64,000 nt of DNA, taken from assembly GCA_964570365.1 (NCBI GenBank), contig CAZMXT010000002.1, positions 57,752 to 121,751 of the forward strand, in the 5' to 3' direction. How positions within the stretch are numbered: the stretch's first letter is position 1; each line of letters starts with the position of its first letter. A model generated the notes under the pieces. That model saw only the letters and a list, made by a program, of their open reading frames with translations, was not told where the DNA came from and searched no databases. The position numbers and the translations under genes were made by a program. Source of the DNA: an uncultured Pseudomonadales bacterium. Its GTDB lineage: Bacteria > Patescibacteriota > Microgenomatia > UBA1400 > PJMF01. This document shows, in pieces, positions 4,210-57,970 of the stretch.

Positions 4210-4216
4210 GTCTCAA

Positions 4217-4333
4217 TTATCCTTGGCGCTGCTTGTGTTTGGCACTGACTGAACAGATTACATACAACACGCCTTTACGACGCAGATGTTTGCAGCCTCG
4301 ACACATTTTTTTTACTGATGATCGTACTTTCAT
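4217..4333 (-). CDS. rpmJ: 50S ribosomal protein L36
   Basis: Not in the ORF track (38 aa). Minus-strand translation [38 protein letters not shown] is a canonical L36 zinc ribbon, between infA and rpsM. Confidence 0.8.
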
Positions 4334-4416
4334 AACTTTTTCGCTGTTGTTCACTAGATGTGAGTCGAATGACAACAGAGGTGAAATATACCTTAAAAGC
4401 GTATTTTTGAAAAGTC

Positions 4417-4746
4417 CTAGTTTGAATGCAAGGCTTTTTGGGTTGATCTATACGTTATTTTACACTTTTTGAGGTCATATTTAGAGACATATCCCTTGAC
4501 TAAATCGCCTGGAAGTACGCGAATTCTGAATAATCGCATCTTTCCCGCCAATGTACCCAACAAAACTTGTCCTACCAGCTGAGGTGCAGTGGCATTTGTA
4601 ATCTTGACCCGAAACATGGTGTTTGGCAGGCACTCTTCCACTTCACCCTCCATATCGAAGATGTCATCACGTTTATCAGCATCATTACCAGCATCAACCT
4701 GTCTTCTGGCTTTAGCGGCACGCTTATGTTCTTGGACTTTTCCCAT
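4417..4746 (-). CDS. infA: translation initiation factor IF-1, possibly with a ~30-aa N-terminal extension
   Basis: C-terminal 78 aa match IF-1 (LPNTMFRV...GKMR...PGD). Start could be Met1 (4746) or internal Met32 (4653); TATAAT hexamer lies 7 nt upstream of the Met1 ATG. Confidence 0.85.
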
Positions 4747-31146: not shown

Positions 31147-32127
31147 CTACCGTAAATACTGCTGAACATTTGCATTATGCTCAGGAAGTGTTTCAGCAAA
31201 GTGAATTTGGCCTTTGGTATCATGGATATAGTAGAGGTAGTTGGAAGCACGAGGATTCATACTGGCCTTCAGTGCTTCTAGGCTCGGGTTGGCAATTGGG
31301 TGGGGTGGTAAGCCCATATACTTGTAGGTATTAAACGGGGAAGTGCTCTCTTTATCAGCGATTAAGGGCGGCGTCCACCAGGCTTGCTGGGCGGTGTCAT
31401 AGCCACGAATATACTGCAGTGTTGCATCTACATTCAATCCCATCCCAAGCTTAATCCTATTCCAGAGAATGCCGGCCACGGTTCTCATCTGGTCAGGATC
31501 GCTGGCTTCTCGTTCCACGATAGAAGCAATGGTTACAATGTCTTCCAAAGATCTGCCAGACGCGTCAATCTCAGCTGCTAAATCTTCTTCAACTTTCTCT
31601 GCAAAAGTATTTCTAAATAACTGGAAAAATGTTTTTGCTGTGGCTGACTTCTGAATTAGATAGGTGTCTGGGAATAAGTAGCCTTCTTCTGGTTTAGCTA
31701 AAGCTAAGAACTCTGCTTGATCAAACTCTGAAAATTCTTGCCGCTCAATCATCTCGGCAATCTCTTCTACTCGCCACCCTTCTAAGACAGTAATCCAGAC
31801 ATCATTACTACCTTGGGTGAGTTTGTCGGCAATTTGCGCTGTAGACATGTTAGGGGAAATTTTAAAAGATCCAGCCTGAAGTTTATTAGACAGATTACTT
31901 CGCCAAGTCACAAAACGAAAAGCCAGAGGATGGCGAATCAGACCAGCATCGGTGAGACGTTGACCAATAGCTGTAACTGATTGACCCTTAGGAATTACGA
32001 AAGTGACAGCCTCTATTTTTCCTGGACTGACGGGTTGTAGCTGCTGGTACCCAGCAAAAACGCCTACTCCGGAAACAGCTAAACCCAGAAGGAGAAATAT
32101 GACTAAGAAGAGAATGCCTTTTTTCAC
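31147..32127 (-). CDS. mltG: endolytic murein transglycosylase MltG (YceG family)
   Basis: 326 aa, N-terminal TM, YceG-like sequence including the GLPPxPI motif. Confidence 0.8.
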   Translation of the reverse strand: MKKGILFLVIFLLLGLAVSGVGVFAGYQQLQPVSPGKIEAVTFVIPKGQSVTAIGQRLTDAGLIRHPLAFRFVTWRSNLSNKLQAGSFKISPNMSTAQIADKLTQGSNDVWITVLEGWRVEEIAEMIERQEFSEFDQAEFLALAKPEEGYLFPDTYLIQKSATAKTFFQLFRNTFAEKVEEDLAAEIDASGRSLEDIVTIASIVEREASDPDQMRTVAGILWNRIKLGMGLNVDATLQYIRGYDTAQQAWWTPPLIADKESTSPFNTYKYMGLPPHPIANPSLEALKASMNPRASNYLYYIHDTKGQIHFAETLPEHNANVQQYLR

Positions 32128-32139: not shown

Positions 32140-32532
32140 TCATTTGGGATAGGCATCTAAGTACTCTTGCAAAAACTCAGCGGCCGCATATTGATCAATT
32201 GTGCCACGTCGTAAGTGCGTTTTCCCCCCTGCTCGGAGTTTCTGTGTTACTACGACCGAACTGAGTGTCTCATCGACAAACTCAAGTGGTAAAGCTACTT
32301 CTGCCTGGAGCTGTTGAACAAACTGGCGAGTTTGCTCAGCCATCGTATTTTCGGAGAGCCCAACTATGATCTGTTGAATAGACTCACGAGCAATCAAGTC
32401 TTTGAGTTCTGCGATGGTCCGAGCTGAGTTCTCTAGTATCCCCAATGGCTCTGCCAAGATCCCTCGAGAAATTGCCAAACCAATTCGCTTCGTCCCAAAA
32501 TCTATGGAAAGGGTGGTTGGAGGAAATGACAT
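32140..32532 (-). CDS. ruvX: RuvX/YqgF Holliday-junction-resolvase-like pre-16S rRNA nuclease
   Basis: ORF to 32610 but the conserved N-terminus LSIDFGTKRIGLA follows the internal Met at 32532. Confidence 0.75.
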   Translation of the reverse strand: MSFPPTTLSIDFGTKRIGLAISRGILAEPLGILENSARTIAELKDLIARESIQQIIVGLSENTMAEQTRQFVQQLQAEVALPLEFVDETLSSVVVTQKLRAGGKTHLRRGTIDQYAAAEFLQEYLDAYPK

Positions 32533-32542
32533 AGAATGATTA

Positions 32543-33529
32543 CTATAATGGCTGTGTTTCCAACTCAGCCACGATGACTCCTCTACGTAAGTAGGTCCCT
32601 TCTGGGACACAGGTGATCAATTTTAACTGATTTACCTGATAATTTTGCTCCAAAATAAAAGTTTCATCAGGCTTAACTTCTCGTTTTTCCCTCACAATAT
32701 AGGTATATCGAACGTCATCATGGGTGACGTAAATTCTATCTCCAGGTTTTAAGATCATAATTTTACTGAAAATCGAGTTGTAGCGACGAGGATTTTTAAT
32801 GCTGGGGTTATAAAACTGCCGCAAGACAGAGTGACCAAAAATCACCGGCGAGCCTAGTTGACCTGGCATAGCTGTTCCAGGGTACTGAATCAAACTGTGA
32901 TCCAAGTTGGTGCCCCCAACTCGCACCTTGGCATTCTCCACATTTAAGGTGGGAATATCAACTCGATACTCAATTTGGCTAGTACTCGTCTCACTTTCTC
33001 CAAGCTCAGGTATAGAGCTTTCGGGGAACCAGTTTGAAAGATTACTATAGTCAAGTTGGTCGTTCAAAATTGTCGGTTCAATACTAGAAACTTCTCCAGC
33101 TGAAAAAGCTTCAGCCTGATCATTGCTCCCTTGCGCCTGTACCTGAGTGACTCCAGGAATTCTCGCCTCTAGGACTTGCTCTCGTGGAATTGGTGCCAAG
33201 AGATTAGTACTGGAGAGATCAGGAGAAGTAAAAACAAAGTACGATAAGATCGGCCAAGCTGCGTTCCCGACTAAGAAAATACCCAAACTCACAAAAATAA
33301 TAGGTAAAGAGTGTGCAAAAACCCTCGCTAGCAACGGACCTTTTTTTTTAATCTTTTGGAGGTGTTGACGATCATCCTTTTCTTCTAATTTCAGGGTAGT
33401 TTGAGAGCGCAGCAAAAAGGTATCAATTTTTTGTTGCACTGTATCTAAAGGGATGTTCCCTAAAACTGCCTGACGATAAAGACTAATGAGCTTGTCTTTT
33501 GAAATTGCTCTGGTACTTGGGGAAGGCAT
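32543..33529 (-). CDS. sortase family transpeptidase
   Basis: 328 aa; N-terminal TM, C-terminal catalytic region with LITCVP (TLxTC) motif and a conserved His upstream. Confidence 0.75.
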   Translation of the reverse strand: MPSPSTRAISKDKLISLYRQAVLGNIPLDTVQQKIDTFLLRSQTTLKLEEKDDRQHLQKIKKKGPLLARVFAHSLPIIFVSLGIFLVGNAAWPILSYFVFTSPDLSSTNLLAPIPREQVLEARIPGVTQVQAQGSNDQAEAFSAGEVSSIEPTILNDQLDYSNLSNWFPESSIPELGESETSTSQIEYRVDIPTLNVENAKVRVGGTNLDHSLIQYPGTAMPGQLGSPVIFGHSVLRQFYNPSIKNPRRYNSIFSKIMILKPGDRIYVTHDDVRYTYIVREKREVKPDETFILEQNYQVNQLKLITCVPEGTYLRRGVIVAELETQPL

Positions 33530-33547
33530 AAATTAGCACTATTATAA

Positions 33548-35785
33548 TTACTCAGTAATCGTAATGGTAATTTTTTCGAGTTGCTTTGGTACTGATTGGG
33601 TGATTAAGGCAAAGAACTTTGGCCAACGGCTCACCTGAACTGACTCTATCTGAGGCTTTCCTTGCAAAGTCGCGACTGCCACTTTTTCTGCTTGGCCTGC
33701 TACTTCTTTTTTCCAGTCTTCCACTTGAACTACCGGTTGGACAACTGAGGAGAGATTTACATTTAAAGTCACTTGCGCAGAAGTGGTGGAGCTATTTGCT
33801 GGTGCAGATAAAATCTGCGGGTCTTTCTCGATCAACTTATAATTTGCTGGCGCCTGAGCTGACAAGATAGCGACTGCCAACGGCTTCAAATCTTCAGGCG
33901 AGTACGAGAGCGCCTCAGCTTCCATTTTTAGAGAAAGATCAAAGGTATTTGTTTCTTTGCCTACTTCTGCATTGTACTTGGTTTCCAAAACTTTTACTCG
34001 GTTCGTGGGAACAATAAAACGACCTTCAGCTGCTTGAGCATTCAGCTCAGTTGCAGCCTGATCACTGAGCTCTTTTCGCAGCGTAGCGAGTAAACTATCT
34101 CGGTCCTTTTGAGAAACCGCTCGGATTTCTCGACTGGTGCCGCCAGCTAACTGAGCATTCGTTCGAGCAACGTAGGTCTCCAGAGAGAAACTCTCGATTG
34201 TCAGCTCTGTTTGTGCCGGGATATTAGACGTATCACCGATCTCTGCTGCGGTAACCCCTGCTTCGCTAGTGCCTGGCTTGGTTTCGAAGTTTGTCCCAGT
34301 ACTTGCAGAGGCAACAGTGACTGATTCATCGAGGGTAAACTTCAGCGTCTTACTTGCCAATACAGTTCCTGCCGAAAAAGATTTAGCGCTGGAGGTTCGA
34401 TTAAATATCGTAATCTTTCCCTTTGCCTTATCTCCAATGATCTTTTTTCCAGTGGAATCAGCCGTCTTTTGACCTGAAACTTCTTTTTTCACCACATCGG
34501 CTTTTAAGACTCTTTTCTCTACATCACTACTGACCGCCTGAGAGTCTAAAATTAATTGAATTTCTTGACTGACTGGCTGAGTGCGAAGGCGAACTATAAA
34601 GTTGGCAGAGATCATGTTCCTGGCAGCAACGGTAGAAAAAAGAGCCAGTAGAGCGAGCCCAGTGATCACACCGATGATGACGAGCAGGATTGGTCGACGA
34701 TGAAAGAGATGCAACCTTCCATGACTAGGGACAGCGTCTTCGTAGGCATCTACATCTAGTTCTGCAGCAGTGGTAGCGTCGTGGGAATGAATAGAGTCTA
34801 ATGATACAGGAATCCCAAAAGTGGATGCCTGCGTATTGTGTGAGACAACAACATCTGGAACAGCAGTTGCTTCTTTCCTTTCAACTCTCTTGAAGTTATC
34901 TGGCACAGCTGTTCCCAGTCTTCCTGGTTCAGAGACTTCGTCCTCAATTTTGGAGTCATTCGCAACTGACAATTCTGCTTCGCCAAGCTCCCCATCCTCG
35001 GGAGAGGTAGTCTCAGCGATCAAATGATGAGCCTGAGCAACCGCTTTTCCACCAGTCTCCACCATCACCTCCAAAAACTTTTCAGGTGGATAGACCTCTA
35101 CTATGGGTGGGTGCATAAAAGGATGATGCTTCGCCCATTCGTAACCAAGGAGTTGTTGCTGAGTCGCCACTACTTCTTCGGCAGATAGAGTGCTGGAGAA
35201 GAGCAGAAACTTGGTTGGAAATACTTTTTCGGTAAAGTGAGCAAATGCCTCCGTTAAATCTGAGACGCCATCACCAGACCGACCAACTTGCTCAGTTTGC
35301 AAAATCTGCCCACTTTTGACTAAAGAAGCAAAAACTGCATGAGCAGTCAACTCAATTAGGAAAAAATGCTGCTGCGGTTCTGAGTTGTGAGCTAAGTACT
35401 GAACTAAGGCTTCAGAGGTCACCACAAAGCCAATTGCTTCTAACGATAATTCTTTAACGAGTTTTTGGAAAAGTGGTTTACGAATCTGCTGAATTCCTTC
35501 TTTGTCTACCCATTCAGGGTTCAGGGCAAAGAGTGCTTGCTTCACATTTTCTGACTCTTTCCCTAGTTCCTGCAAACTCAGATCAACCGCCTCTACGCAT
35601 TGCTCGTCAGTTTGCCATTGATGGGGTGAGGATTGAGTGACAACTTTTACTGCTCCATTGAGCACCTGCCACAAAACGGCTTGAACCTGACCATCTGCTA
35701 AGTGAATCGCAAAAAATAATGGGGTAGGAGTTTCTTCCTGATTTGATAACAACTGAGGGAGCTTCATGATCATAGGTCCTATCAT
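33548..35785 (-). CDS. membrane-anchored protein: N-terminal FtsA/PilM-like (degenerate) actin-fold domain, one TM helix, ~360-aa extracytoplasmic region
   Basis: N-terminal FFAIHLADGQVQAV resembles phosphate-1, FFLIELTAHAVFASL replaces DxGGGTT, and ETGGKAV resembles the adenosine motif; the TM helix begins LLVIIGVITGLALLALF. Confidence 0.45.
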   Translation of the reverse strand: MIGPMIMKLPQLLSNQEETPTPLFFAIHLADGQVQAVLWQVLNGAVKVVTQSSPHQWQTDEQCVEAVDLSLQELGKESENVKQALFALNPEWVDKEGIQQIRKPLFQKLVKELSLEAIGFVVTSEALVQYLAHNSEPQQHFFLIELTAHAVFASLVKSGQILQTEQVGRSGDGVSDLTEAFAHFTEKVFPTKFLLFSSTLSAEEVVATQQQLLGYEWAKHHPFMHPPIVEVYPPEKFLEVMVETGGKAVAQAHHLIAETTSPEDGELGEAELSVANDSKIEDEVSEPGRLGTAVPDNFKRVERKEATAVPDVVVSHNTQASTFGIPVSLDSIHSHDATTAAELDVDAYEDAVPSHGRLHLFHRRPILLVIIGVITGLALLALFSTVAARNMISANFIVRLRTQPVSQEIQLILDSQAVSSDVEKRVLKADVVKKEVSGQKTADSTGKKIIGDKAKGKITIFNRTSSAKSFSAGTVLASKTLKFTLDESVTVASASTGTNFETKPGTSEAGVTAAEIGDTSNIPAQTELTIESFSLETYVARTNAQLAGGTSREIRAVSQKDRDSLLATLRKELSDQAATELNAQAAEGRFIVPTNRVKVLETKYNAEVGKETNTFDLSLKMEAEALSYSPEDLKPLAVAILSAQAPANYKLIEKDPQILSAPANSSTTSAQVTLNVNLSSVVQPVVQVEDWKKEVAGQAEKVAVATLQGKPQIESVQVSRWPKFFALITQSVPKQLEKITITITE

Positions 35786-35830: not shown

Positions 35831-37708
35831 TTACTGGAACTGGATGTAAATGCGCCGAATTCCGGCAGAAGCAGATTGCTCTTTGAGGATCCGAACAGGG
35901 CCAATCTGGCCAGTTGAAGACACATGAGGGCCACCGCAGAACTCTTTAGAAATCCAGTCCGACTCAACATCTTTGCCAATGGTATAGACAGTGACTTGAT
36001 CAGGGTATTTTTCAATAAAGAAGGCAATTGCGCCTGATTTCAGCGCGTCAGTTTTCTTCATTTTTTGTAATGTGACCGGCAAATCAGCCTTGATCCACTC
36101 ATTCATCTGGGCAGAAACGTGCTCTATTTCTGTCGGTGTTAAAGCCTGGGGATGAGAAAAGTCAAAGCGTAGCCGCTCAACTGTAATGTTGGAGCCTTTT
36201 TGCTGCACATGAGTACCTAAGATCTTCCTGAGTGCTGCATGGAGTAAGTGAGTGGCAGTATGGAACTTGGTGGTGACTTCTGAGTGTTCCTCTAACCCAC
36301 CTTTAAATTTGCCCGCAGAAGCAGTTCTCGATTTTTCTTTATGAAGATTAAAAGCTTTCGCAAAGGCTTCTGTATCGACGTGTTGACCTCTCTCAACAGC
36401 AATTTCTTTAGTTAGCTCTAACGGAAAGCCGTAGGTTTCATATAACTGAAAAGCAATTTCTCCTGTGAGTTCTGGAAAATGCTCTATCTCTCGCAAGCCT
36501 TTATCTAGAGTTTTGTTAAACTTTTCCTCTTCATCTCCCAAGACTTTCTTAATTTGGTCAGCCTGAATTTGTACTTCTGGATAAGCATCTCCGTATAAAG
36601 TAATCACTTCCTGCGCCATTTGGCTGACAAAAGCTTGCCTAATCCCAATCATCCGACCATAGCGAACAGCCCTCCGAATAAGGCGTCGCGCTACATACCC
36701 TTGCTCTTTATTGGAAGGATAGACGCCATCAGCCGCTAGCATCGTTGCAGCTCGCAAGTGATCACTGATAACTCGAAATGAGCGCTGCGTGTTGAGATCT
36801 TCTGGACTGTATTTTTTGCCGCTGACTGCTTCAATCTTGGCAATCAAAGGTTGAAAAAGGGCGGTAGTAAATATGTCTGGATCGTTATTCAACGCAGCCA
36901 AAATGCGTTCAAACCCACCACCAAAGTCAATATTCTTTTGCTTGAGGAGCTCAAAACCTTTCTCTGTACGAATATAGGTCATGAAGACATTATTGCCGAT
37001 CTCTAAAAAGCGACCACAATCACAGTTCACATGACACTGCTGAGTGCTAAAAACTGAGTTCTCGTGTAGCTGCAGCTCATCACCAAAGTCATAAAATACT
37101 TCACTATCTGGACCACCTAGCTCACCCACTGGCATATTCTTAGGAGCGCCCACACGTGACCACCAGTTTTTATTTTCGTTATAGTAGAAAATTCGGCCTG
37201 CTTGCAGGCCTTCCTGCTCAGAAAAATCGATATCTTTCGCCTCAATTCCCACGGTTTCGAATAAGCGTTTCCAGATCTTCACCGCTTCAGTATCACGAGG
37301 AATATTGAGGTCAGGCTGACCTCGGAATACCGTCACATATAAATTTTCAGGATTCAGACCTACTTCTTTGGTTAAAAACTGAAAAAACCACTCCAGCTGC
37401 TCTTGCTTAAAATAATCACCCAGTGACCAGTTCCCCAACATTTCAAAAAAGGTAGTATGTCGATTATCACCCACTTCTTCGATGTCCTGAGAACGAAAGC
37501 ATTTTTGAGAGTCTACTAAGCGGATACCTTTAGGATGAGCTGCCCCGAGTAAATACGGCATCATCGGCTGCATACCAGAGCCGGTGAAAAGTGTGGTTGG
37601 ATCATTTTCTGGAGTCATGGGCGCTGACGGCAAGATAGCATGACCATGTTCTGCAAAAAAATTCAGGTACTTTTGGCGTAATTGAGCGGGAGAAAACGGT
37701 AAAGACAT
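35831..37708 (-). CDS. alaS: alanine--tRNA ligase, short form (625 aa) lacking the C-terminal C-Ala domain
   Basis: Class II catalytic core plus editing domain with the HxxxH...CGG zinc motif region. Confidence 0.85.
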   Translation of the reverse strand: MSLPFSPAQLRQKYLNFFAEHGHAILPSAPMTPENDPTTLFTGSGMQPMMPYLLGAAHPKGIRLVDSQKCFRSQDIEEVGDNRHTTFFEMLGNWSLGDYFKQEQLEWFFQFLTKEVGLNPENLYVTVFRGQPDLNIPRDTEAVKIWKRLFETVGIEAKDIDFSEQEGLQAGRIFYYNENKNWWSRVGAPKNMPVGELGGPDSEVFYDFGDELQLHENSVFSTQQCHVNCDCGRFLEIGNNVFMTYIRTEKGFELLKQKNIDFGGGFERILAALNNDPDIFTTALFQPLIAKIEAVSGKKYSPEDLNTQRSFRVISDHLRAATMLAADGVYPSNKEQGYVARRLIRRAVRYGRMIGIRQAFVSQMAQEVITLYGDAYPEVQIQADQIKKVLGDEEEKFNKTLDKGLREIEHFPELTGEIAFQLYETYGFPLELTKEIAVERGQHVDTEAFAKAFNLHKEKSRTASAGKFKGGLEEHSEVTTKFHTATHLLHAALRKILGTHVQQKGSNITVERLRFDFSHPQALTPTEIEHVSAQMNEWIKADLPVTLQKMKKTDALKSGAIAFFIEKYPDQVTVYTIGKDVESDWISKEFCGGPHVSSTGQIGPVRILKEQSASAGIRRIYIQFQ

Positions 37709-37732: not shown

Positions 37733-38095
37733 TTAAACACCTTTAAAGCGGTTTCCACCAAACTTCTTCACTTTACTAGATGGGCGAGACAGCTTTTTGC
37801 CTTTTGCGGTAGGATTCATGAGTGAGGTTGGAAGTGATGTGTTGAGGGTGTTAATAAAGAACTCATGTAAAAACTCACGCAACGATATCTTATTATTGAC
37901 GATTACACCTTCCTCTATCATATTAGCTTTTGCTTCTTCCCATTCTTTCGTCAATTTCTTGCGTAACTTTTCACCATTTTCTGTCGCAAATAAATAGTAA
38001 CCAGCTGCTCCAGCAAAAATACCTAAAGTAAAACCCACCATGAACGAACCTTGTTCTGCAGGGTTTTCAAGATTATTCAGATCAGAATTATTCAT
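37733..38095 (-). CDS. YtxH/DUF948-like small membrane protein
   Basis: 120 aa; G-rich TM (GFTLGIFAGAAGYY) then a charged helical region. Confidence 0.45.
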   Translation of the reverse strand: MNNSDLNNLENPAEQGSFMVGFTLGIFAGAAGYYLFATENGEKLRKKLTKEWEEAKANMIEEGVIVNNKISLREFLHEFFINTLNTSLPTSLMNPTAKGKKLSRPSSKVKKFGGNRFKGV

Positions 38096-38372
38096 CTTGT
38101 TGCTTTCCTCGGTTCAACCAGCGAGTAAAAGACTCAAATATCTTAAATCCTGCACTCAGACTCCCAGTCATTCCGACTAGGCTTTGAAGAGGAGAAGCAA
38201 TGGCGTTAATTTTACTCTCAGCCATATCAATAGTCATGTTAACTCGATCTAAAGTTTCGGTCAGCCTGCGGAGGACTTGCACGACGTAGACCCCTACTAC
38301 AACTAACGTGATCGTCAATAAACTGACAGCAATTGTTAATACGATTGGTAATATATTCATGAATACTTCCAT
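38088..38372 (-). CDS. DUF948-like small membrane protein
   Basis: 94 aa; N-terminal TM then coiled-coil region. Confidence 0.4.
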   Translation of the reverse strand: MEVFMNILPIVLTIAVSLLTITLVVVGVYVVQVLRRLTETLDRVNMTIDMAESKINAIASPLQSLVGMTGSLSAGFKIFESFTRWLNRGKQQDE

Positions 38373-38418
38373 ATGAACTCCTCAACAGTAACTATAACAC
38401 ATCAAATCCACGCAATCA

Positions 38419-39063
38419 TCAAAAGCGTACGTGAACTGAACGCTGAGTTTGATTTTTCTTACCCCGACGATCTGCCACTTCAACTGTGATCACATGAATG
38501 CCCTCACGAGGCAAGTAGACGTCAGTTTCAAATGTCCCATTAGGCAGAATGCTGACTGGTTGGGAGTTCACCATGACTTTGCCATCCGAAACTGTTTGAC
38601 CAGCTACTTTAATCTGAGGGGACACAAAAGCATTTTCCAGTGGCGACTCTACGATGAGTATGGGTGGTTTTTGCAGGTTATACCACTGTAAAACCAAGTA
38701 ACTCATCAAGGTAAAAAAAATTGCGCCTAAGGCCAAAACAGTCACTGTAATTGGCGTCCAAACTAGTCGGCGTTTTAAAACTGGCTTAATAAATTCTCGT
38801 GGAACGAGGGTACCGGAAGCGCTTTCTTTGTAATCTCGGCGCAGAATTCCTAGTAATGGAAGAGGGTCTAAGTTGAACAATCCAGCATAGGTCTTGATAA
38901 AACCTTTGACAAAAGTGGAAGCAGGTAACTCGGAAAACTCATTTCTTTCTAAAGCCTCCAGATATTCTGGCCGAATTCTAGTTCGCTGCGCCATCTCTTT
39001 GATTGAAAGATGATGTCGTAACCGCTCGTCTTGCAGAATTTCACCAATTGTTTTTGTTTTCAC
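38419..39063 (-). CDS. rodZ: RodZ-like protein (XRE HTH, one TM helix, C-terminal domain)
   Basis: 214 aa; N-terminal HTH (LSIKEMAQRTRIRPEYLEALE), central TM, C-terminal beta-rich domain. Confidence 0.55.
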   Translation of the reverse strand: MKTKTIGEILQDERLRHHLSIKEMAQRTRIRPEYLEALERNEFSELPASTFVKGFIKTYAGLFNLDPLPLLGILRRDYKESASGTLVPREFIKPVLKRRLVWTPITVTVLALGAIFFTLMSYLVLQWYNLQKPPILIVESPLENAFVSPQIKVAGQTVSDGKVMVNSQPVSILPNGTFETDVYLPREGIHVITVEVADRRGKKNQTQRSVHVRF

Positions 39064-39083
39064 AGTTCACTATACACTCAAAT

Positions 39084-39557
39084 TTAGGTGGTCATCAATT
39101 GCTTCACTGCTGCTGAAACACGACCACCATCAGCTCTGCCAGCTACTTTTGCCATCACAGCCCTCATTACTTCACCAAAGTTGGCACCTTCTGTACCTCG
39201 CTTTGCTTCTACGACCAACTTCATTAACTCTTCCTCACTCAGTTGCTGAGGAAGGTAGGCTTCGAGAATTGCAACTTTACTTGTTTCTTCAGAAACTAAA
39301 TCCTGGCGACCCGCTTTTTCAAAGTCAATCAAAGCGTCCTTCATTTTCTTGACTTCACTAGCAATCAACTTGAGCACACCAGCGTCATCCTGCTCACCAT
39401 TATCAATTTCCCAGTTTTTAATAATCGAGAGTAGGAAACGAATTGTATTCAAGCGCAACGAGTCTCTGGCTCGCATTGCATTTTTCATATCTTCGGTAAG
39501 TTGGTTTTTAAGAGGTGACATGGGACTCCTTACTAGTGATTGTAACATGTCCAGCAT
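39084..39557 (-). CDS. yqeY: GatB/YqeY domain protein
   Basis: 157 aa, YqeY-like helical sequence. Confidence 0.7.
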   Translation of the reverse strand: MLDMLQSLVRSPMSPLKNQLTEDMKNAMRARDSLRLNTIRFLLSIIKNWEIDNGEQDDAGVLKLIASEVKKMKDALIDFEKAGRQDLVSEETSKVAILEAYLPQQLSEEELMKLVVEAKRGTEGANFGEVMRAVMAKVAGRADGGRVSAAVKQLMTT

Positions 39558-45401: not shown

Positions 45402-46025
45402 CTACATCTTGCTTGGCATTAAGACTGAGTTAATGACGTGTGTCACACCATTACTCGAGATCACATTAGGTGTGTCCACAGTGGCAGAGTTGCCCTTTGC
45501 ATCTTTAATCATGACTGTGCCATTTTGTACCACCACCATCAGTTGTTCACCTTGAACAGTCTTGAGCTTTTGACCATCTTTAAGGTCAGCCGCAACATAA
45601 CGACCGGGGACGACGTGGTAGCTCAGAAGACTCGCCAACTGCGCCTTGCTTTCTGGCTTTAACAGACCTTGAAGCGTAGCGGCAGGTACTTTATCAAAGG
45701 CTGCATTGGTTGGAGCAAAAACAGTGAAGGGACCTGGTCCACTCAGTGTCTCGACTAAACCGGCAGCTTTTACTGCACTCACTAAGGTCGTCACAGTACT
45801 CGCGTTCATCGCATTTTCCACGATGTTCTTAGAAGGCACCATCATCGCACCCCCAACCAACACGCCGTCTTCTTTCATCATGGGTGGTGTACTGGCCATC
45901 ATCGCTTGATCTGAACTTTCAATCTTACTCGATGGTGAGGCTGCAGGCGCACTCTGAGGCGAGCAAGCTCCCAAAAATAAGGATGTCATTAATAAGCCGC
46001 CAGCAAAAATTGCTACTTTTTTCAT
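45402..46025 (-). CDS. fasciclin (FAS1) domain lipoprotein
   Basis: Lipobox LGAC; FTVFAPTNAAF and NGVTHVINSVL FAS1 motifs. Confidence 0.75.
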   Translation of the reverse strand: MKKVAIFAGGLLMTSLFLGACSPQSAPAASPSSKIESSDQAMMASTPPMMKEDGVLVGGAMMVPSKNIVENAMNASTVTTLVSAVKAAGLVETLSGPGPFTVFAPTNAAFDKVPAATLQGLLKPESKAQLASLLSYHVVPGRYVAADLKDGQKLKTVQGEQLMVVVQNGTVMIKDAKGNSATVDTPNVISSNGVTHVINSVLMPSKM

Positions 46026-48287: not shown

Positions 48288-48869
48288 TTAGAATTCTAAA
48301 AAGTTAATATCAAAAGGCAGTTTCTCGGCCCAAGAACGCAACACTTTTTCTAAGGTTGATTGAGAAGGCTTTTTGTAAAGTAAGTACGTGCCAATAGCAT
48401 TCTTTATTTTTGCCTCCTCTGCATCAGGAATGATGAACTTCCAAACTTGAATACGCGGAAAAATACTTCTAATAAAAAGAACTTGTCCAGTGTTTTTTTC
48501 TTCTATCCAAAATTGAGAAAGATCTGGCCAAAAAAAATAGCGTTCACCATACTTGATCCCAATTGTCGTAACAGAGCATAGTAAATGAGCTGGGGGCACT
48601 GCGGAAAGTATCATATATAAAAACCCTAACACCAGTAGAACCACAGCCAGTAAGATCTCCTGCAACAAAATTAACAATAACAATACTAAAAGCATCAAAA
48701 TAAATAAATGTTTTTTCTCTGAGGAAGCACGTTTTTTGGTCAATTTATTGGGTGCCTGCCACTCTACCAGCATTTTTTCCTGGACCACGTACCGATCCAG
48801 ACCTAGGGGATCCTGATAAAATTTTTCTGGGAAACTTTGATTATTAGGAAATTCTTGTGTAGGAGACAT
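48288..48869 (-). CDS. hypothetical membrane protein
   Basis: 193 aa; Leu-rich double TM hairpin. Confidence 0.45.
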   Translation of the reverse strand: MSPTQEFPNNQSFPEKFYQDPLGLDRYVVQEKMLVEWQAPNKLTKKRASSEKKHLFILMLLVLLLLILLQEILLAVVLLVLGFLYMILSAVPPAHLLCSVTTIGIKYGERYFFWPDLSQFWIEEKNTGQVLFIRSIFPRIQVWKFIIPDAEEAKIKNAIGTYLLYKKPSQSTLEKVLRSWAEKLPFDINFLEF

Positions 48870-52377: not shown

Positions 52378-54510
52378 TTAATTTACCGGTAATTGAATTG
52401 AAAAAGATGTACCTGATTTTTTTGAAGAAGTCACCTGAATGCTTCCACTATGTAGCTGAATAATTTGCTGGGAAATATACAGCCCCAATCCTGTTCCTGA
52501 GTTGACCATTTTTTGATAAGAATGCTCAATTCTACTGAACTTCTGAAAAAGCTTTTGTTGATCTTTTTTATTAATACCCGGACCACTGTCTATAACTTTA
52601 ATACCTACTATGAGGCTCATATGGCTTACTTCCACACTTACCTTTCCATTTACTGGAGTAAACTTCAGAGCATTCCCGATAATATTTTGCAGAACTTCCC
52701 GTATTTTTTCCTGATCAGCAATAATATTTACTTTTTTGGTTGTTGGGTTGAAAATGAAGCGTATTTTTCTCTCATCTGCCTTTACTTGGAGTTCTTCTTT
52801 TACTTGAGATATAAGATGTATTACATTAAAACTTTTCAATTTCAGTCCGAAATGATTTCCCTCTATTCTAGAAATCATCAACATGTTTTTTACAAGATGA
52901 ATCAGTCTTTCAGATGACGCGTAAGCAATCTCTAAATGCTGTCGAACCTCATTTGAAAGAGTTGAGGATCCTTGAAGAGACAGCCAAAGATAACTCTTAA
53001 TTGCAGTTAAAGGAGTTCGCAGCTCATGGGAAGCGATAGTAACAAACTCGTCCTTCAATCGATCTAATTGTCTTAGGGTAGCGTTGGTCTTTTGCAACTT
53101 TCGAGTCGCTCGAGCCACTTCCTGCTCCAGTTTTTGATTAAAGGTTGAAATTTCGTCGTAAGAAAGAGCATTTTTCACTGCAATCGAGAGTTGAGGACAC
53201 AAAATTTCTAAGACACTTAGGTCTTCTAAAGTGAAGTCATCACCAGACGATTTTTCTCCTAGAAATAAAGTGCCCATTAATTTCTCCCCAACTCTTAGAT
53301 CCAAGGCGGCCATTAGCCCATATTTTCTAGCCATTTCCTTTCCATCTGATTCTGGAACTTCACTAAAAAGCAGTATTTTCCTTACAGAAGAAAAATCCGA
53401 ACTCAACAAATAGAATCTTTTCTCAGCTTCTCTAGTAAGGTTTTTTTTATCGGTGCTGAAAACAGCATTCTGACTACCTGGTATAACCAAAGTTAAGGAG
53501 CTAAACTTCATTTCCTGTTGAAGCTTTTTGAGGAACAAAGAAATAAGTTCCTGAAGGACAATATTGGTGGAAGCAATATGAGCCAGTTCATGCAGTAACT
53601 TTCGAGCATCATACGCGTTCCGGAAAAAAACTTTTTCTGTTAATTTTTCGATGAATCGCCTAAGTGGCTGGAAAGTAAGTGCCGCAAATACGGAAACGAT
53701 CACCCCATAAACTACATCTACTGTATCGCGCTGCTGTTCTGTAAAAAATTCTCCTAAGAGAAAAAGTCCTCCAATATAGAGCAGCGCAACTGTAGACATA
53801 AAGAATAGATACCCGAACGAGCGAACAATAACAAATTTAATATCCAGCAAACGATGTTTGACAATCGCATAAGTCAGAAATATAACCAGAATGAGTGAAA
53901 AGCTTGGACCCAAAGCAACCATGCTTAAGTTATTCCAAACTACTACTGCAAGAAAGTTAGTAGAAAAACCCAATGCTACAGTCAAAATCAAACCCAGCAC
54001 TACAAAGAAAACTTGAGCTTTCTGCCTTCCCATTGAGTTTCTATACTTTGAAACTAAACTTAAAAATGCAGCCAGACTAAGCATGGAAAAGTTCAAGCCA
54101 TAAAGGGCAGCAGCAGGGCCGGGTGTTAAGCTAGGTTTCCCACCTACAAAGCTGTAGCTAGAAAACATTAACGACGTGGGCGTTAATAGCAGAACGCATG
54201 CTGTTACCGCTGTAAGAAAGACTAACAATACTCTGTTTACTTTTTCAGGTTTATTAGGAAAAAAGTAAGCAATCAGAAAAAAAACCAGTGGAATTGGAGT
54301 AGTAACAAACATTACTGCTCGCACCCAAAATAAGCGTTGAGCTGCATCAACAGGCAATAACGAGCAGGTATTTGCAACTGTCCACAAGGTCAGCAGAAGT
54401 ATAAAAATCACTACCAAAATATTTACTGGATGTCTTCTATTTCTGAGAAAAACTAAAGTAGCTAAACAAAGATTAGTAACAATAGTAATGACTGCAATGT
54501 AGATAATCAT
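52378..54510 (-). CDS. sensor histidine kinase with a multi-TM N-terminal sensor
   Basis: ~8 TM helices, HisKA (IASHELRTPLT), HATPase (GTGLGL); ORF to 54555 but the likely start is MIIYIAV. Confidence 0.8.
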   Translation of the reverse strand: MIIYIAVITIVTNLCLATLVFLRNRRHPVNILVVIFILLLTLWTVANTCSLLPVDAAQRLFWVRAVMFVTTPIPLVFFLIAYFFPNKPEKVNRVLLVFLTAVTACVLLLTPTSLMFSSYSFVGGKPSLTPGPAAALYGLNFSMLSLAAFLSLVSKYRNSMGRQKAQVFFVVLGLILTVALGFSTNFLAVVVWNNLSMVALGPSFSLILVIFLTYAIVKHRLLDIKFVIVRSFGYLFFMSTVALLYIGGLFLLGEFFTEQQRDTVDVVYGVIVSVFAALTFQPLRRFIEKLTEKVFFRNAYDARKLLHELAHIASTNIVLQELISLFLKKLQQEMKFSSLTLVIPGSQNAVFSTDKKNLTREAEKRFYLLSSDFSSVRKILLFSEVPESDGKEMARKYGLMAALDLRVGEKLMGTLFLGEKSSGDDFTLEDLSVLEILCPQLSIAVKNALSYDEISTFNQKLEQEVARATRKLQKTNATLRQLDRLKDEFVTIASHELRTPLTAIKSYLWLSLQGSSTLSNEVRQHLEIAYASSERLIHLVKNMLMISRIEGNHFGLKLKSFNVIHLISQVKEELQVKADERKIRFIFNPTTKKVNIIADQEKIREVLQNIIGNALKFTPVNGKVSVEVSHMSLIVGIKVIDSGPGINKKDQQKLFQKFSRIEHSYQKMVNSGTGLGLYISQQIIQLHSGSIQVTSSKKSGTSFSIQLPVN

Positions 54511-55775
54511 TGATTGTTGGATAGTTGTTGAAAGAATTGTTCTGCAACCACACAAGCCGCCGCTACGCTCAAGCTTTGAGGGATGGGTGGTTTCTTTTTA
54601 AAGTACACACCGTGAATAGTTTCTCCCACTACAGTTGTAGGTTGAATACTATTCGGTTCACTAATAATTTTTACTGGCAATCCGTGTTTTCTCAGCACGC
54701 GGTGAAGAGCCGGCTGAGTATTAAATATTTCATGACTTACATCAGGCCAATTTCGAGCAATTCCTTCATGGATAATCATCATTAAACTTGCACTCACAGT
54801 CGCCCTATCAGCTTCAGAAGCAACTTGTTTGAGTAAATCTGCCGACACTACATTAAGCCGTGTAATCTCAGCTAAAGAACTTTCCGGAAGATCAGCAAGC
54901 TCCTCTCCATCTTGGTTGTAAGCAAAACTGAGAGCGGCTTGAGTTGGTAAAGAGCTCAAAAGACTAGGATGAATTTGGGGAGCTCCAGCCTCAATCTTGG
55001 TTTCTCTTAGGGATTTTTCCCCACTTCCACGCATGGCGCCCATTGAACCTACTATGTACTTTTTGCCCTGATGTGAAGCAATAACTAGTGCCACCAAGTA
55101 GTCGTCTCGAAAAGAATGCATCATTGCTAGAAGTAACTCAGCTTCTAGTTGCTGGCGGTAGCGGAGTTGCAGCCGTTCGTAATTTTTTCCAGTGACTTTT
55201 TTCCCTGATGCACTTAGAGTACCTAATGCTATTTTTTCGGCTACTTCAGAGGTTTGGAGGAGTTCTCTAGCATATATATGGGTTGACATATCAACGATTT
55301 GAGCAATAAATCCTAAGTTTAAAAATTGAATTAGTCCGCACCACAAGCTTAAATTTTGGCCATCTATCTCTACTTGAATTGCACTTTCTGAAATACTTTT
55401 ATAGTCGGGATCCTTATTTACATACCAATAAGCTTTATCATAAAAATGATAAGTAGGTAGACTTACAATACTCAGAGGGTGGGAACTCTCGTAATACAAC
55501 TCCTGATGAAGAGCAAAAATATGTGCCATACTTTCTAGCTCCAGTGATTTTAGTCCCGGAGATCTAAACCTTTCTATTTCTCTAATAACACTCCTAACTT
55601 TCTTAGTAATTTTTTGTTTCTCAAGATCTACTACTAACCTCATACTTTCAAGATAATTAACATCTTCTAGACCATACAAAGTTGTTTGTCCTTCAGTTCC
55701 AGATCCATCTATTAATCTTTTTCCTTCTCTTAACATTTTTTCTCCTATGTGGAAGATTATAGCTTGATAGATCAA
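54507..55775 (-). CDS. hypothetical protein (422 aa)
   Basis: Long clean ORF upstream of the kinase; no family recognised. Confidence 0.5.
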   Translation of the reverse strand: MIYQAIIFHIGEKMLREGKRLIDGSGTEGQTTLYGLEDVNYLESMRLVVDLEKQKITKKVRSVIREIERFRSPGLKSLELESMAHIFALHQELYYESSHPLSIVSLPTYHFYDKAYWYVNKDPDYKSISESAIQVEIDGQNLSLWCGLIQFLNLGFIAQIVDMSTHIYARELLQTSEVAEKIALGTLSASGKKVTGKNYERLQLRYRQQLEAELLLAMMHSFRDDYLVALVIASHQGKKYIVGSMGAMRGSGEKSLRETKIEAGAPQIHPSLLSSLPTQAALSFAYNQDGEELADLPESSLAEITRLNVVSADLLKQVASEADRATVSASLMMIIHEGIARNWPDVSHEIFNTQPALHRVLRKHGLPVKIISEPNSIQPTTVVGETIHGVYFKKKPPIPQSLSVAAACVVAEQFFQQLSNNQ

Positions 55776-56412: not shown

Positions 56413-57570
56413 TCACAGGCTTGGAGAAGGACTAGCTGAGGCAGAAGCCGCAGGCTCCGTAATCGGAGCGACCAGTTGGGTGCTAACCCATTCATGAACT
56501 CCCTGCCAATTTCCCACCCCATCTTTGGCAACTAAGATACTTTGCCCATTTGCGCTGCGGGATAACATTAAGGCATTGTCTTCGGTTAATGCGAAACTGT
56601 GGATACTAAAGCCACGTAATTCGTCCTTATAACGCAAAAACATCTGCATGTCAGCTAGAGTTAAATCAGTGGTCAGATCATTCGATAAACTTGAGATAAA
56701 AGGAAGTACTTTAGGGAAAAAATCTAGACTAAAGACCCGCTCTTTGACCGCCAATAAAAGATTCCGCTGACGTGCAGCTCGACCGAAGTCAGTTCCATCT
56801 TGAGCGGAGTGGCGAGACCGAACATACTTCAGCGCTGTTTCTCCACTCATTAATGTTCGACCTCTATCAAAGTGAAGTTGCTCATAGCGACAGGGAAGCT
56901 CTTTCTCGGCTATGCTCGCGGAAACGGTTGCCAGAGCCTTAAGCTCTTCATCTGTCTTGCCGCAGGGGTCAGTTTCTTTTCCTTCAATTGGGTAAAGAAA
57001 ATCGTCAAAGGTTTTCTCTACATTGACGTTAACGCCTCCTAGAACATTAACCGAGCGTTTGAAGCCGTGAAAATTCAAAGCTACAAAGTTATCTATTTCT
57101 AATCCTGTCACCTGATTTACAGCATACTTGGCTAGCTCACCTCCACCAGCTTCTCCGGTATACCGGGCCGGCTTGAACCTGTAACTCCGATCATCTGCCC
57201 CATTTGCGTAGGCAGCATTGATTTTCCAAGAGCTGTTCTGCTCAGGAGTTAATGGTAGAGACACCCATAAATCTCGAGGTAAGGAAATAAGAGTGATACT
57301 TTTTTTCTCTGGCCAGATGTGCACCACCATCATCGAGTCTGTCAGCTTCCCACCTTCATGGGCTCCACCCCCATATCCAAGCAAAATGAAGGCATACGGT
57401 AAGGCATTATTAAAGCTGTCTACTGGAGTATGAGCAGGCGTAAGCGCCGAATCCCTGTCTTGAGTATTTGGCTGCACCGAAATTTTTTGGAAATTTCCAT
57501 ATAAGAAAAATCCAAATCCCATACTGAGAGAAACCAGACCTAGCAGAATGAGGATTAAAACTTTTTTCAC
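56413..57570 (-). CDS. LytR-CpsA-Psr (LCP) family protein
   Basis: TM plus LCP domain; ORF extends to 57687 across the upstream receiver, so a GTG at 57570 is the likely start. Confidence 0.7.
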   Translation of the reverse strand: MKKVLILILLGLVSLSMGFGFFLYGNFQKISVQPNTQDRDSALTPAHTPVDSFNNALPYAFILLGYGGGAHEGGKLTDSMMVVHIWPEKKSITLISLPRDLWVSLPLTPEQNSSWKINAAYANGADDRSYRFKPARYTGEAGGGELAKYAVNQVTGLEIDNFVALNFHGFKRSVNVLGGVNVNVEKTFDDFLYPIEGKETDPCGKTDEELKALATVSASIAEKELPCRYEQLHFDRGRTLMSGETALKYVRSRHSAQDGTDFGRAARQRNLLLAVKERVFSLDFFPKVLPFISSLSNDLTTDLTLADMQMFLRYKDELRGFSIHSFALTEDNALMLSRSANGQSILVAKDGVGNWQGVHEWVSTQLVAPITEPAASASASPSPSL

Positions 57571-57592
57571 TTCGGAGAAGGAGTATAGCAAA

Positions 57593-57970
57593 TTATAGGT
57601 ATGGTGTTCCGACTTTCTCTGCCACTTTGATGAGTAACTCTTCCATCTCGAAAGGCTTAGCAATAAAATCATCTGCCCCAGCATCAAAAGCTGATTGCTT
57701 TACGTCTCGACTAGCTGAGATCAAGATAATAGGTAAATCTTTGGTATGCTGCTGGGAACGAAGCACTCGGCAAATTTCCCTGCCATCTTCTCCTGCCATC
57801 CAAATATCCAGTAAGACCAGATCGGGTAAGATTGATTCTTTCTTAGAAGAAGCAAGCACCTTTTTTCCATTCGTGACCACGTCTACATCATATCCAGCAT
57901 CTTCAAGAACAATCTGAATTACGTCTAATATAGCAGTATCATCATCGGCCACCAGAATCCTTTTCTTCAT
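57593..57970 (-). CDS. single-domain response regulator (CheY-like receiver)
   Basis: ILVADDD...DLVLLD...KPF. Confidence 0.75.
   Translation of the reverse strand: MKKRILVADDDTAILDVIQIVLEDAGYDVDVVTNGKKVLASSKKESILPDLVLLDIWMAGEDGREICRVLRSQQHTKDLPIILISASRDVKQSAFDAGADDFIAKPFEMEELLIKVAEKVGTPYL

Follow-up and report, generated by a model that had tools for sequence, protein, structure and literature searches.

The closest described system is a pair of genes in Southlakia epibionticum, SEML1_0655 and SEML1_0656, which are the split orthologues of the gene described here and occupy the same alaS…ruvX-mltG slot (PMC10633639). Both are flagged as 'core' and 'Patescibacteria-enriched' in Table S1 of that paper, and the Tn-seq calls given there are NE/ES/ES for SEML1_0655 and NE/NE/GD for SEML1_0656; by Tn-seq, these orthologues are fitness-critical. 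Neither gene is discussed in the text of the paper. The FtsA-like partner of the pair carries KO K03590 and matches ECOD e3wt0 (FtsA), and the genome has a bona fide ftsA-ftsZ pair elsewhere (SEML1_0174/0175). The PilM of the Southlakia type IV pilus (T4P) is another gene, SEML1_0104, the top structural matches of the next gene include a PilN, and the listed T4P loci exclude SEML1_0655 and SEML1_0656.

Such split pairs consist of a separate FtsA/PilM-like gene followed by a membrane-protein gene of the 'baseplate J/gp47 family', usually between alaS and ruvX-mltG. In this study, we analysed a window of DNA (the whole stretch examined, 64,000 nt) from a Patescibacteria/CPR bacterium of the Microgenomates type, in agreement with an earlier note that had taken the organism to be CPR-like from the sequence alone. 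The results showed that one gene in this window is the fused form of the two-gene pair found across Patescibacteria. Our literature search found no paper on the protein family, the gene fusion or the sortase linkage described below.

The fused gene and its locus

The gene and its neighbours were located as follows.

33548..35785, minus strand: whole open reading frame (ORF) of 745 codons, encoding an FtsA-like core, a linker, a transmembrane (TM) helix and a baseplate-J-like ectodomain
35831..37708, minus strand: alaS, upstream neighbour in a conserved position
32543..33529, minus strand: sortase gene, 18 nt downstream, matching PF04203 at E 1.8e-19, with a TM anchor
32140-32610, minus strand: ruvX, downstream neighbour in a conserved position
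31147-32127, minus strand: mltG/YceG, downstream neighbour in a conserved position

A 745-codon membrane-protein gene had been claimed at this site, and we found the ORF to be present and strongly conserved. Its full-length homologues (700-800 aa) number at least 127, with identity up to 99% and E values down to 0, indicating that ORF 33548..35785 is a true gene rather than a chance reading frame. The true start is probably Met7, with the ATG at 35767, which would give a protein of 739 aa and make the 745-codon ORF over-extended by 6 codons; this reading rests on an AGGA 9 nt upstream of that ATG, on homologues that begin 'M.LP.LF', and on the 99%-identical relative, which is 739 aa long. The GC content of the gene equals that of its flanks. 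The window protein gave no useful match in Pfam or NCBIfam and none in PHROGs.

The proposed gene order alaS-X-sortase-ruvX-mltG, where X is the window gene, is real: all genes lie on the minus strand, and the order is conserved in related loci. Genome contigs were searched with a profile built from a 15-sequence alignment, and housekeeping neighbours surround the gene in about 50 species-level genomes. The alaS-ruvX-mltG order is an ancient housekeeping arrangement and so is a poor guide to function. The family comprises 9,871 clusters at 50% identity (E <= 1e-10) and is limited to Patescibacteria in every named match, and no relatives of the gene were found in an IMG/VR scan. No ftsZ or ftsQ was present among the annotated genes (window 31-64 kb and 18-22 kb) or in related loci. 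A search of the neighbourhood for gpI/gp48, gp25, hub/spike, tube and sheath genes returned only housekeeping neighbours.

The fused gene and the split pairs have in common the homologous ectodomain, an actin-fold partner that is either upstream or fused, and frequently the alaS…ruvX-mltG slot. By hhalign, the profile of the fused N-domain aligned with the split partner over 235 columns (Prob 98.7, E 2.4e-16), with gaps at subdomains 1C and 2B; a 5-sequence profile was required for this full alignment, and single-sequence hhalign against the WWE3 partner covered 60 residues only. Ectodomain proteins of Saccharibacteria and other CPR bacteria were homologous to the window ectodomain by tblastn (1e-21 to 1e-31) and by profile matches. 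The split partners of Dojkabacteria, Moranbacteria and L065 still keep the motifs LDIGTE, DIGGGTTD and LCGGGA, and matches to PF11104 (PilM_2) were also found in split partners. A VirD4/HerA-like ATPase gene precedes the pair in WWE3, in one Saccharibacteria MAG and in one SAG. The natural fusion of the two genes speaks for the FtsA-like and baseplate-like proteins functioning as a single unit.

An actin-fold core joined to a baseplate-type ectodomain

The following features were assigned within the protein.

35747..35767, minus strand: conserved N-terminal peptide M-x-L-P-x-L-[FL] (MKLPQLL), preceding the first strand
35030..35719, minus strand: minimal actin/ASKHA core, residues ~23-252, with subdomains 1A and 2A only (1C and 2B missing)
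35696..35704, minus strand: phosphate-1 position, H28-L29-A30 in place of D-I-G, by HMM alignment to S. aureus FtsA
35336..35356, minus strand: phosphate-2 position, IELTAHA (144-150) in place of D-I-G-G-G-T-T, by FtsA HMM alignment, split-orthologue alignment and hhalign
35189..35209, minus strand: true adenosine-motif position, FLLFSST (193-199) in place of [FL]LCGGGA, by hhalign against split orthologues
35048..35059, minus strand: ETGG (243-246), in the last helix, aligning with 'D-x-T-G' of split orthologues
34697..35029, minus strand: acidic linker, residues 253-363, variable in length and sequence, with no consensus in the alignment
34622..34696, minus strand: single TM helix, residues 364-388, N-in/C-out, hydropathy 2.8
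33551..34621, minus strand: extracytoplasmic domain, a complete Baseplate_J/gp47/TRI-2-type wedge-protein homologue
34418..34435, minus strand: G-D-K-A-K-G loop, residues 451-456, at the start of the Baseplate_J-type barrel

The N-domain was predicted by AF2 with a pLDDT of 93.4 (65-68 only in the N-terminal peptide MKLPQLL), and its order of secondary structure is that of a bare 1A+2A core. FtsA was its best structural and sequence match; the family profile matched S. aureus FtsA at E 9e-4, the sole significant PDB sequence match. The earlier assignment of this region to the ASKHA/FtsA-PilM pattern held for the fold, which is the actin/ASKHA fold of FtsA and PilM, but not for its extent, which is ~230 aa (1A+2A) and not ~350 aa. 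The FtsA subdomains 1C (the SHS2 insert) and 2B are absent, and hhalign against SHS2-bearing orthologues placed deletions of ~85 aa and ~45 aa at the 1C/2B sites. The M-x-L-P-x-L-[FL] peptide is common to the separate FtsA/PilM-like genes of split loci, as seen in alignments and by hhalign.

The three ATP-binding motifs of FtsA are likewise missing, and the residues at their positions (HLA, IELTAHA and FLLFSST) are not conserved in the family. The phosphate-1 column is unconserved in the alignment of fused-family N-domains, and neither the acidic residue nor the glycines of phosphate-2 are conserved across the family, which agrees with the earlier observation that the catalytic signatures are replaced. 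The same note had named ETGG as the adenosine motif; this was the wrong register, and profile alignment to orthologues that keep LCGGGA put the motif at residues 193-199. These findings indicate a minimal, two-lobed actin/ASKHA core on the cytoplasmic side, descended from an FtsA/PilM-like gene, that lacks subdomains 1C and 2B as well as all three nucleotide-binding signatures. Judged by its sequence, the core is probably ATP-blind, loss of consensus motifs being no proof of lost nucleotide binding.

The TM helix lies at the same place in 46 of 46 aligned homologues and the protein has no N-terminal signal peptide; the product is a bitopic (N-in/C-out) membrane protein. The expectation that one helix joins the N-domain to an ectodomain was borne out; the ectodomain spans ~357 aa. 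The linker before the helix, which we assumed to be disordered, is only ~45 aa long in Gottesmanbacteria forms.

The ectodomain was predicted with a pLDDT of 90.6 (AF2), and Foldseek aligned its whole length collinearly with wedge proteins of ~350 aa (E 6e-6 to 7e-5), the fold of the PF04865 class. Its profile matched TRI-2 at E 0.0017 in an alignment that begins at the GDKAKG loop, where both glycines are invariant and D, A and K are at least 90% conserved. PF04865 was matched by 16 of the 46 homologues at E <= 0.01 (best 1.7e-8) and was not above threshold for the window protein itself in the Pfam search; a match to phrog_6 was found among family members, and relatives carry the NCBI label 'baseplate J/gp47 family protein'. 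The ectodomain, in which the note had recognised no motif and which it had suspected to be PilN/PilO-like, is instead a complete, whole-length structural homologue of the wedge protein, ~350 aa long, that contractile phage tails and tailocins carry (Mu gp47, diffocin TRI-2).

Sortase linkage and proposed role

The sortase gene encodes a protein with a sortase fold, an N-terminal membrane anchor (TM helix ~70-90) and the His, Cys (TLxTC-like) and Arg motifs, read as FGHS 231-234, ITCV 305-308 and LRRG 314-317 by alignment to B. anthracis SrtA (PDB). From these motifs the enzyme is predicted to be catalytically intact, and its score reaches no NCBIfam class cutoff. In 46 of 46 fused loci, and in 2 further fused loci of the Gottesmanbacteria type (48/48), it directly follows the fused gene, a count that does not represent 48 independent observations, since the linkage is probably one ancestral event in one clade. 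In the 46 fused loci, the gaps between the two genes range from -8 to +119 nt, and stop and start codons often overlap; larger apparent overlaps in some rows reflect a crude start-codon call. An adjacent sortase was found in none of the 7 split loci fetched, nor at the published Southlakia locus. We searched for a sortase substrate, defined by an LPXTG-like motif ahead of a hydrophobic segment and a basic tail; neither the window nor 825 kb of related loci yielded a credible candidate.

We propose that the protein is a trans-envelope scaffold in which the fused actin core and the wedge ectodomain work with the sortase, a reading to which we give about even odds (roughly 0.5). The actin-fold core would act without ATP hydrolysis, as its replaced motifs suggest, and may serve as a protein-binding or self-association module, by analogy with PilM, the GspL cytoplasmic domain or FtsA. 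The wedge-like ectodomain would self-associate as wedge proteins do, forming a platform on the external side of the membrane or within the wall. Core and ectodomain together would make a non-enzymatic scaffold spanning the envelope, whose partner in Microgenomates would be the co-expressed sortase; most likely the scaffold would position the sortase or host the assembly of sortase-attached surface material.

The earlier idea of a division or envelope module is plausible. A specific form of it is that the protein is a factor of the divisome or of wall growth, a TM-anchored FtsA paralogue coupling a cytoplasmic partner to peptidoglycan remodelling outside (MltG, a LysM/CHAP hydrolase, FemAB bridge synthesis, septal sortase anchoring). 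The match to FtsA, in the window protein and in the Southlakia partner alike, points this way, as do the neighbours (mltG, a RodZ-like HTH_25 protein, DUF948/YtxH, LysM+CHAP and FemAB) and the Southlakia fitness defect on outgrowth. However, Southlakia has its true ftsA-ftsZ elsewhere, the subdomains missing from the fused form are those with which FtsA binds late divisome proteins and FtsZ, the alaS-ruvX-mltG arrangement is a general housekeeping one, and mltG was non-essential in the same Tn-seq. We consider this explanation unlikely. In contractile tails, baseplate wedge proteins naturally serve as the platform on which receptor-binding fibres sit, and the ectodomain could accordingly be an extracellular platform for host attachment or exchange at an epibiotic interface. 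The confinement of the family to Patescibacteria in named matches, its 'Patescibacteria-enriched' flag, the behaviour of SEML1_0655, which is essential solely when the cells are passaged on the host (class II), and the VirD4/HerA-like gene before some pairs all fit such a role; class II essentiality, however, is common to many housekeeping genes, genes for a fibre, spike, tube or sheath are absent nearby, and a host-contact function appears doubtful, less likely than a role in the divisome.

The strict and often translationally coupled adjacency of the sortase, together with an exposed and strongly conserved lysine loop (K455 at least 90% conserved), raises the question of whether the protein is itself the acceptor, a base to which an LPXTG protein or polymer is ligated, for example via the lysines of the GDKAKG loop. 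This is very unlikely: split forms without an adjacent sortase conserve the loop just as strongly, the substrate search was empty, and the protein has no C-terminal sorting signal, its conserved C-terminal '[LV]P....[KR]I' recurring in sortase-less forms with no hydrophobic tail after it. For the latter reasons we rejected the protein as a canonical sortase substrate. We place marginally lower the suggestion of an assembly platform like that of type IV pili or type II secretion, a fusion of the PilM-PilN/PilO or GspL type, for which the PilM_2 matches of split partners and the GspL-resembling layout (actin-like domain, TM helix, outer domain) speak. The suspected pilus link was not upheld, since none of ~60 loci contained pilB, pilC, pilN, pilO or pilin genes, the true T4P PilM and true FtsA of Saccharibacteria are separate genes elsewhere, and the ectodomain matches wedge proteins and not the ferredoxin-like folds of PilN, PilO, GspL or GspM. 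The Baseplate_J fold, its sequence signals and the NCBI names could also mark what is left of a prophage or contractile injection system, with the baseplate gene sitting here by chance. We rejected a prophage origin as extremely improbable: other tail genes are lacking, the gene keeps a fixed slot between housekeeping genes in about 50 species, and does so in different classes of the phylum, it is fused to a TM anchor and an actin fold, and it is absent from IMG/VR with the GC content of its flanks.

If the scaffold reading is extended to the whole family, a tentative picture emerges, and one we hold to be less likely than the scaffold itself, of a phylum-specific envelope-spanning apparatus with a domesticated baseplate wedge outside and an FtsA-derived module inside, assembling into a wedge-like platform or ring in the wall, without which the cells would not grow on the host. 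In Microgenomates, its halves would be fused, the actin fold would be a nucleotide-independent stub and the coupling to sortase would be obligate. Such an apparatus, if real, would organise the cell surface in a new way, without parallel in studied bacteria, and would clearly exemplify the recruitment of a phage structural protein for cellular use. Much of bacterial diversity lies within Patescibacteria, and for most core genes specific to their lineages no role is known. The family described here, with about 10,000 clusters, is phylum-restricted in named matches and proved fitness-critical in the one member that is amenable to genetics. A cytoskeletal-type scaffold and a phage baseplate protein are an unexpected pairing, and here both serve in a chromosomal membrane protein; the invariant sortase linkage in Microgenomates provides a concrete, testable partner. 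Knowing what the protein does could show how the surface of these wall-bearing, ultrasmall cells, or their contact with hosts, is organised.

Comparison with known systems

The window protein resembles FtsA in being a membrane-attached actin-fold protein (S. aureus FtsA, 3wqt/3wt0), but lacks 1C (SHS2), 2B and the ATP motifs; where FtsA has a C-terminal amphipathic helix, it has a TM helix and a large ectodomain, and its neighbourhood is not the ftsQ/ftsZ neighbourhood of FtsA. With GspL it shares the layout of a cytoplasmic actin-like domain, one TM helix and then an outer domain, and by analogy with PilM and with PilM-PilN/GspL a non-catalytic scaffold role is likely. In contrast to PilM, it is not encoded with pilN/pilO and pilB/pilC, and it has neither the periplasmic ferredoxin-like (alpha-beta-beta x2) domain of GspL/PilM-PilN nor a T2SS operon around it. 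A β-barrel of GlxA, the membrane-anchored copper oxidase of Streptomyces lividans (PF21110), was matched in 6 of 46 homologues, and GlxA is also an N-terminally TM-anchored extracytoplasmic protein; the match spans only ~140 residues, and the window protein has no propeller or copper site.

Among Baseplate_J proteins, the ectodomain resembles Mu gp47, the P2 gpJ class, diffocin TRI-2 and the wedge proteins of phi812 and A-1(L), and more distantly T4 gp6 and Afp11/Pvc11. Those proteins belong to contractile tail or injection clusters with gpI/gp48, gp25-like, hub, tube and sheath partners, none of which accompany the window gene, whereas the window form is membrane-anchored, fused to an actin fold and set in a chromosomal housekeeping context.

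Compared with the Southlakia pair, the window locus encodes a single polypeptide in place of two proteins, its actin-fold part is without 1C and 2B, it has no equivalent of the split membrane partner's small SpoIIAA/STAS-like cytoplasmic domain, and a downstream sortase gene that the Southlakia locus does not have is added. The two loci share the gene order alaS, pair, ruvX, mltG, and the Southlakia partner gene is homologous to the N-domain of the window protein.

The fused gene and its neighbourhood

The open reading frame at 33548-35785 (minus strand, 745 codons) was confirmed, and more than 120 full-length relatives (700-800 aa, 99% to 24% identity, E down to 0) among 5.8 billion searched proteins indicate that it is a genuine conserved gene. 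Neither Pfam nor NCBIfam recognised the protein itself. The true start is probably Met7 at 35767, judging from the AGGA 9 nt upstream of this codon, the 'M.LP.LF' with which the homologues open and the 739-aa length of a 99%-identical database relative. A single hydrophobic helix (residues 364-388) occupied the same position in 46/46 aligned homologues. The same-strand flanking genes were alaS, a sortase (PF04203, E 1.8e-19), ruvX and mltG/YceG, and no convincing terminator was found before the end of mltG. The following features were also recorded in the window:

37733-39557, minus strand: block upstream of alaS, kept in closer relatives; YqeY, RodZ-like (HTH_25, TM helix, Glucodextran_B-like domain), DUF948 and YtxH-like small membrane proteins
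33541-33570, minus strand: sigma-70-like match (TTACCA, 18 nt spacer, TATAAT, 10/12) inside the last codons of the fused gene, shortly before the sortase start; a possible internal promoter, or a match by chance
32140-32610, minus strand: longest ruvX frame, GTG start, overlapping the sortase gene end by 68 nt; the Pfam match begins at residue 33 and translation probably starts from Met27 (MSFPP…)
45402-46025, minus strand: envelope-related, Fasciclin-domain protein
56413-57687, minus strand: envelope-related, LytR-CpsA-Psr ligase
59796-61055, minus strand: envelope-related, NAGPA-domain (phosphodiester glycosidase) protein
54507-55775: 422-aa frame, no Pfam match
48288-48869: 193-aa frame, no Pfam match

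The core order alaS, fused gene, sortase, ruvX, mltG, already read from the window in the earlier note, was kept in about 50 species-level Patescibacteria genomes, and closer relatives repeated the longer order yqeY, rodZ-like, DUF948, ytxH, alaS, fused gene, sortase, ruvX, mltG, rpoB. Record titles included Woese-, Shapiro- and Pacebacteria and 'Microgenomates group', named protein matches included Levy- and Gottesmanbacteria, and among named matches the family was restricted to Patescibacteria. This CPR-specific locus also appeared under 'uncultured Pseudomonadales', 'Gammaproteobacteria', 'Vitreimonas sp.' and 'Methylococcaceae' (loci L006, L009, L010, L021 and others); on these many MAG records the labels are evidently taxonomic mislabels.

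An actin-fold domain joined to a wedge-like ectodomain

A model of residues 1-262, built on a 28-sequence alignment, had a mean pLDDT of 93.4. The predicted order of elements was that of a bare ASKHA core (beta3-alpha-beta-alpha-beta-alpha x2) without inserted subdomains, and FtsA and PilM structures were its best matches; the actin fold proposed earlier stood. At sequence level, too, the domain profile found S. aureus FtsA (E 9e-4, two collinear segments). In the S. aureus FtsA alignment, phosphate-1 D-I-G was replaced by H28-L29-A30 and phosphate-2 D-I-G-x-x-x-T by I-E-L-T-A-H-A, and both sets of columns were unconserved across the family, in agreement with the degeneracy noted before. A conserved 'M.LP.[LI]F' peptide (35747-35767, minus strand) preceded the first actin-fold strand in this protein and in FtsA-like proteins encoded by a separate gene (the split form); confidence in its model is low (pLDDT 65-68). 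It loosely recalls the PilN 'INLLP' peptide, which binds PilM.

For the ectodomain, a 25-sequence model of residues 396-745 had pLDDT 90.6 and pTM 0.60, indicating several domains in a flexible arrangement. In Foldseek, wedge proteins of ~350 aa from phi812, diffocin, A-1(L) and Mu aligned over nearly the whole 350-residue ectodomain (311-348 columns, E 6e-6 to 7e-5, probability 1.0). Three sequence signals agreed: PF04865 in 16/46 homologues (best E 1.7e-8), phrog_6 'baseplate wedge subunit' at ~1e-8 in three family members, and the ectodomain profile against TRI-2 (E 0.0017). On these structure predictions and sequence profiles, the ectodomain is a complete Baseplate_J/gp47-type wedge-protein homologue.

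Structural matches of the two modelled domains (match: score)
Actin-fold domain
S. aureus FtsA, 211 residues aligned: 15.3
Three PilM structures: 13.9-14.5
E. coli FtsA, T. maritima FtsA: 13.3, 13.0
Hsp70s, Arps, ParM, MreB: 11-12.8
Ectodomain
GlxA beta-barrel: 14.2
Diffocin TRI-2: 13.6
Cyanophage A-1(L) wedge gp31: 13.3
Mu gp47, 21% identity: 12.8
P1 BplA: 12.5
phiCD508 Baseplate J: 12.5
Pvc11, Afp11, gp6-type proteins: 7-10

The earlier note's observation and its degenerate actin fold and neighbours held, but two of its readings did not: the ectodomain, where it saw no motif and suggested perhaps a PilM-PilN/PilO-like fusion but which is not a PilN/PilO-like domain, and the adenosine motif. 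The latter had been assigned to ETGG (residues 243-246), which lies in the last helix and aligned instead with a C-terminal 'D.TG' of the split FtsA-like proteins; profile-profile alignment to these proteins placed the motif at FLLFSST (residues 193-199).

Split relatives and sortase linkage

Searching with the ectodomain profile returned 500-630-aa relatives in WWE3, Saccharibacteria, Dojka-, Moran- and other CPR groups. A separate gene for a 400-445-aa protein lay directly upstream in 7/7 split loci; five of these partners matched PF14450 (FtsA) and/or PF11104 (PilM_2), and the other two shared 42-45% identity with such a partner. Profile-profile alignment joined the fused N-domain to five split partners (probability 98.7%, E 2.4e-16, 235 columns), with gaps in the fused form of ~85 residues after residue 99, the 1C/SHS2 insert site, and ~45 residues around 171-176, the 2B site. 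Orthology was reinforced by two elements common to both forms, the N-terminal 'M.LP.[LI]F' peptide and a 'W....PF...P' motif. Split partners of Dojkabacteria, Moranbacteria and locus L065 kept canonical LDIGTE, DIGGGTTD and LCGGGA; in WWE3 and Saccharibacteria the nucleotide motifs were already degenerate, and the fused form was degenerate and trimmed. Good evidence that the FtsA-like protein and its wedge-like partner work as a single physical unit comes from their natural fusion.

Split membrane partners carried a small cytoplasmic N-terminal domain (L048:5701-~6000, L061:5584-~5900, SEML1_0655 residues 6-105), which in SEML1_0655 fell in a SpoIIAA/STAS-like ECOD group; the fused form lacked it and had the actin core in its place. 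An ATPase of ~806-810 aa matching DUF87/HerA, TraG-D_C and TrwB (VirD4/T4CP-like) preceded the split pair (L061:1926-4358, L048:2047-4467, L059 ~2025-4445) in WWE3, a Saccharibacteria MAG and a Patescibacteria SAG; this is an ATPase whose homologues turned up neither in the window nor in the fused loci. Thousands of orphan VirD4-like genes far from virB4 have been described in CPR (preprint, 10.1101/2025.01.22.634366).

Among non-redundant fused loci whose downstream sequence extends for 700 bp or more, the sortase was the very next gene in 46/46 (gaps -8 to +119 nt, many 4- or 8-nt overlaps), compared with 0/7 split loci. Two Gottesmanbacteria-type proteins of 616-619 aa were also fusions (hhalign E 4e-38) followed by a sortase, with FemAB rather than alaS upstream. 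The linkage survived while other neighbours changed, and probably reflects one ancestral event. In these Gottesmanbacteria-type loci, FemAB-family genes transcribed divergently from the fused gene (L066:1-380 and L068:756-2365) adjoined it and the sortase; this family builds peptidoglycan cross-bridges, the usual sortase nucleophile. The sortase had its His, Cys and Arg and scored below all NCBIfam class cutoffs; a search for LPXTG-type sorting signals, as the earlier note had advised, gave no sortase substrate across the window and 825 kb of related loci. The sortase's N-terminal cytoplasmic extension is unusually long (~65 aa, residues 1-65, 33334-33529, minus strand; conserved motif 'L..LYRQA...G.PL..V..KI', LYRQA at 33467-33481, minus strand) and was confined to the window's close clade; in Woesebacteria-type sortases beside the same fused gene, only ~10 residues precede the TM helix. 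The extension may serve for docking in the cytoplasm.

The corresponding stretch of Southlakia epibionticum ML1 runs alaS (SEML1_0657), 0656 ('pilus assembly protein PilM', K03590), 0655 ('baseplate J/gp47 family protein'), RuvX (0654), MltG (0653) (PMC10633639). Both 0655 and 0656 belong to core, Patescibacteria-enriched families; Tn-seq calls were NE/ES/ES for 0655, with normalised reads falling 373 -> 34 -> 24, making it class II essential, and NE/NE/GD for 0656 (PMC10633639, Tables S1 and S2). Distinct genes account for the genuine T4P PilM (0104) and for the ftsA-ftsZ pair (0174/0175); 0655/0656 are not among the T4P loci named in the text, and the paper discusses neither of the two (PMC10633639).

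Proposed role of the fused protein

At E <= 1e-10, exhaustive HMMER searching gave 9,871 family cluster representatives, with mostly 700-800-aa fused forms leading the list, and no relative turned up in IMG/VR viral contigs. The architecture, homologies, fusion relationship, confinement to Patescibacteria among named matches and strict sortase adjacency are established. The protein is a fused, sortase-linked variant of an uncharacterised Patescibacteria-wide FtsA-like/baseplate-J-like pair. Our literature search found no paper on the family, fusion or sortase linkage, and no earlier description of this variant; the folds are known and relatives already carry generic database names.

We propose that the trimmed, motif-less actin core would be a binding or self-association module and not an ATPase, like the PilM, GspL and FtsA scaffolds, that the wedge-like ectodomain would self-associate on the membrane's outer face, and that the unit may work with the co-expressed sortase. 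A service in wall growth or division is suggested by the FtsA ancestry of the N-domain and by the neighbours mltG, LysM-CHAP, FemAB and rodZ-like; these neighbours, however, are weak evidence because alaS-ruvX-mltG is an old housekeeping arrangement, and a host-interface role is just as possible. Fold combination, family size, fitness phenotype and natural fusion make the protein a well-defined entry point to the CPR cell envelope.

Strict membership of FtsA, PilM, GspL or phage Baseplate_J was rejected, since some defining features of each were tested and found lacking.
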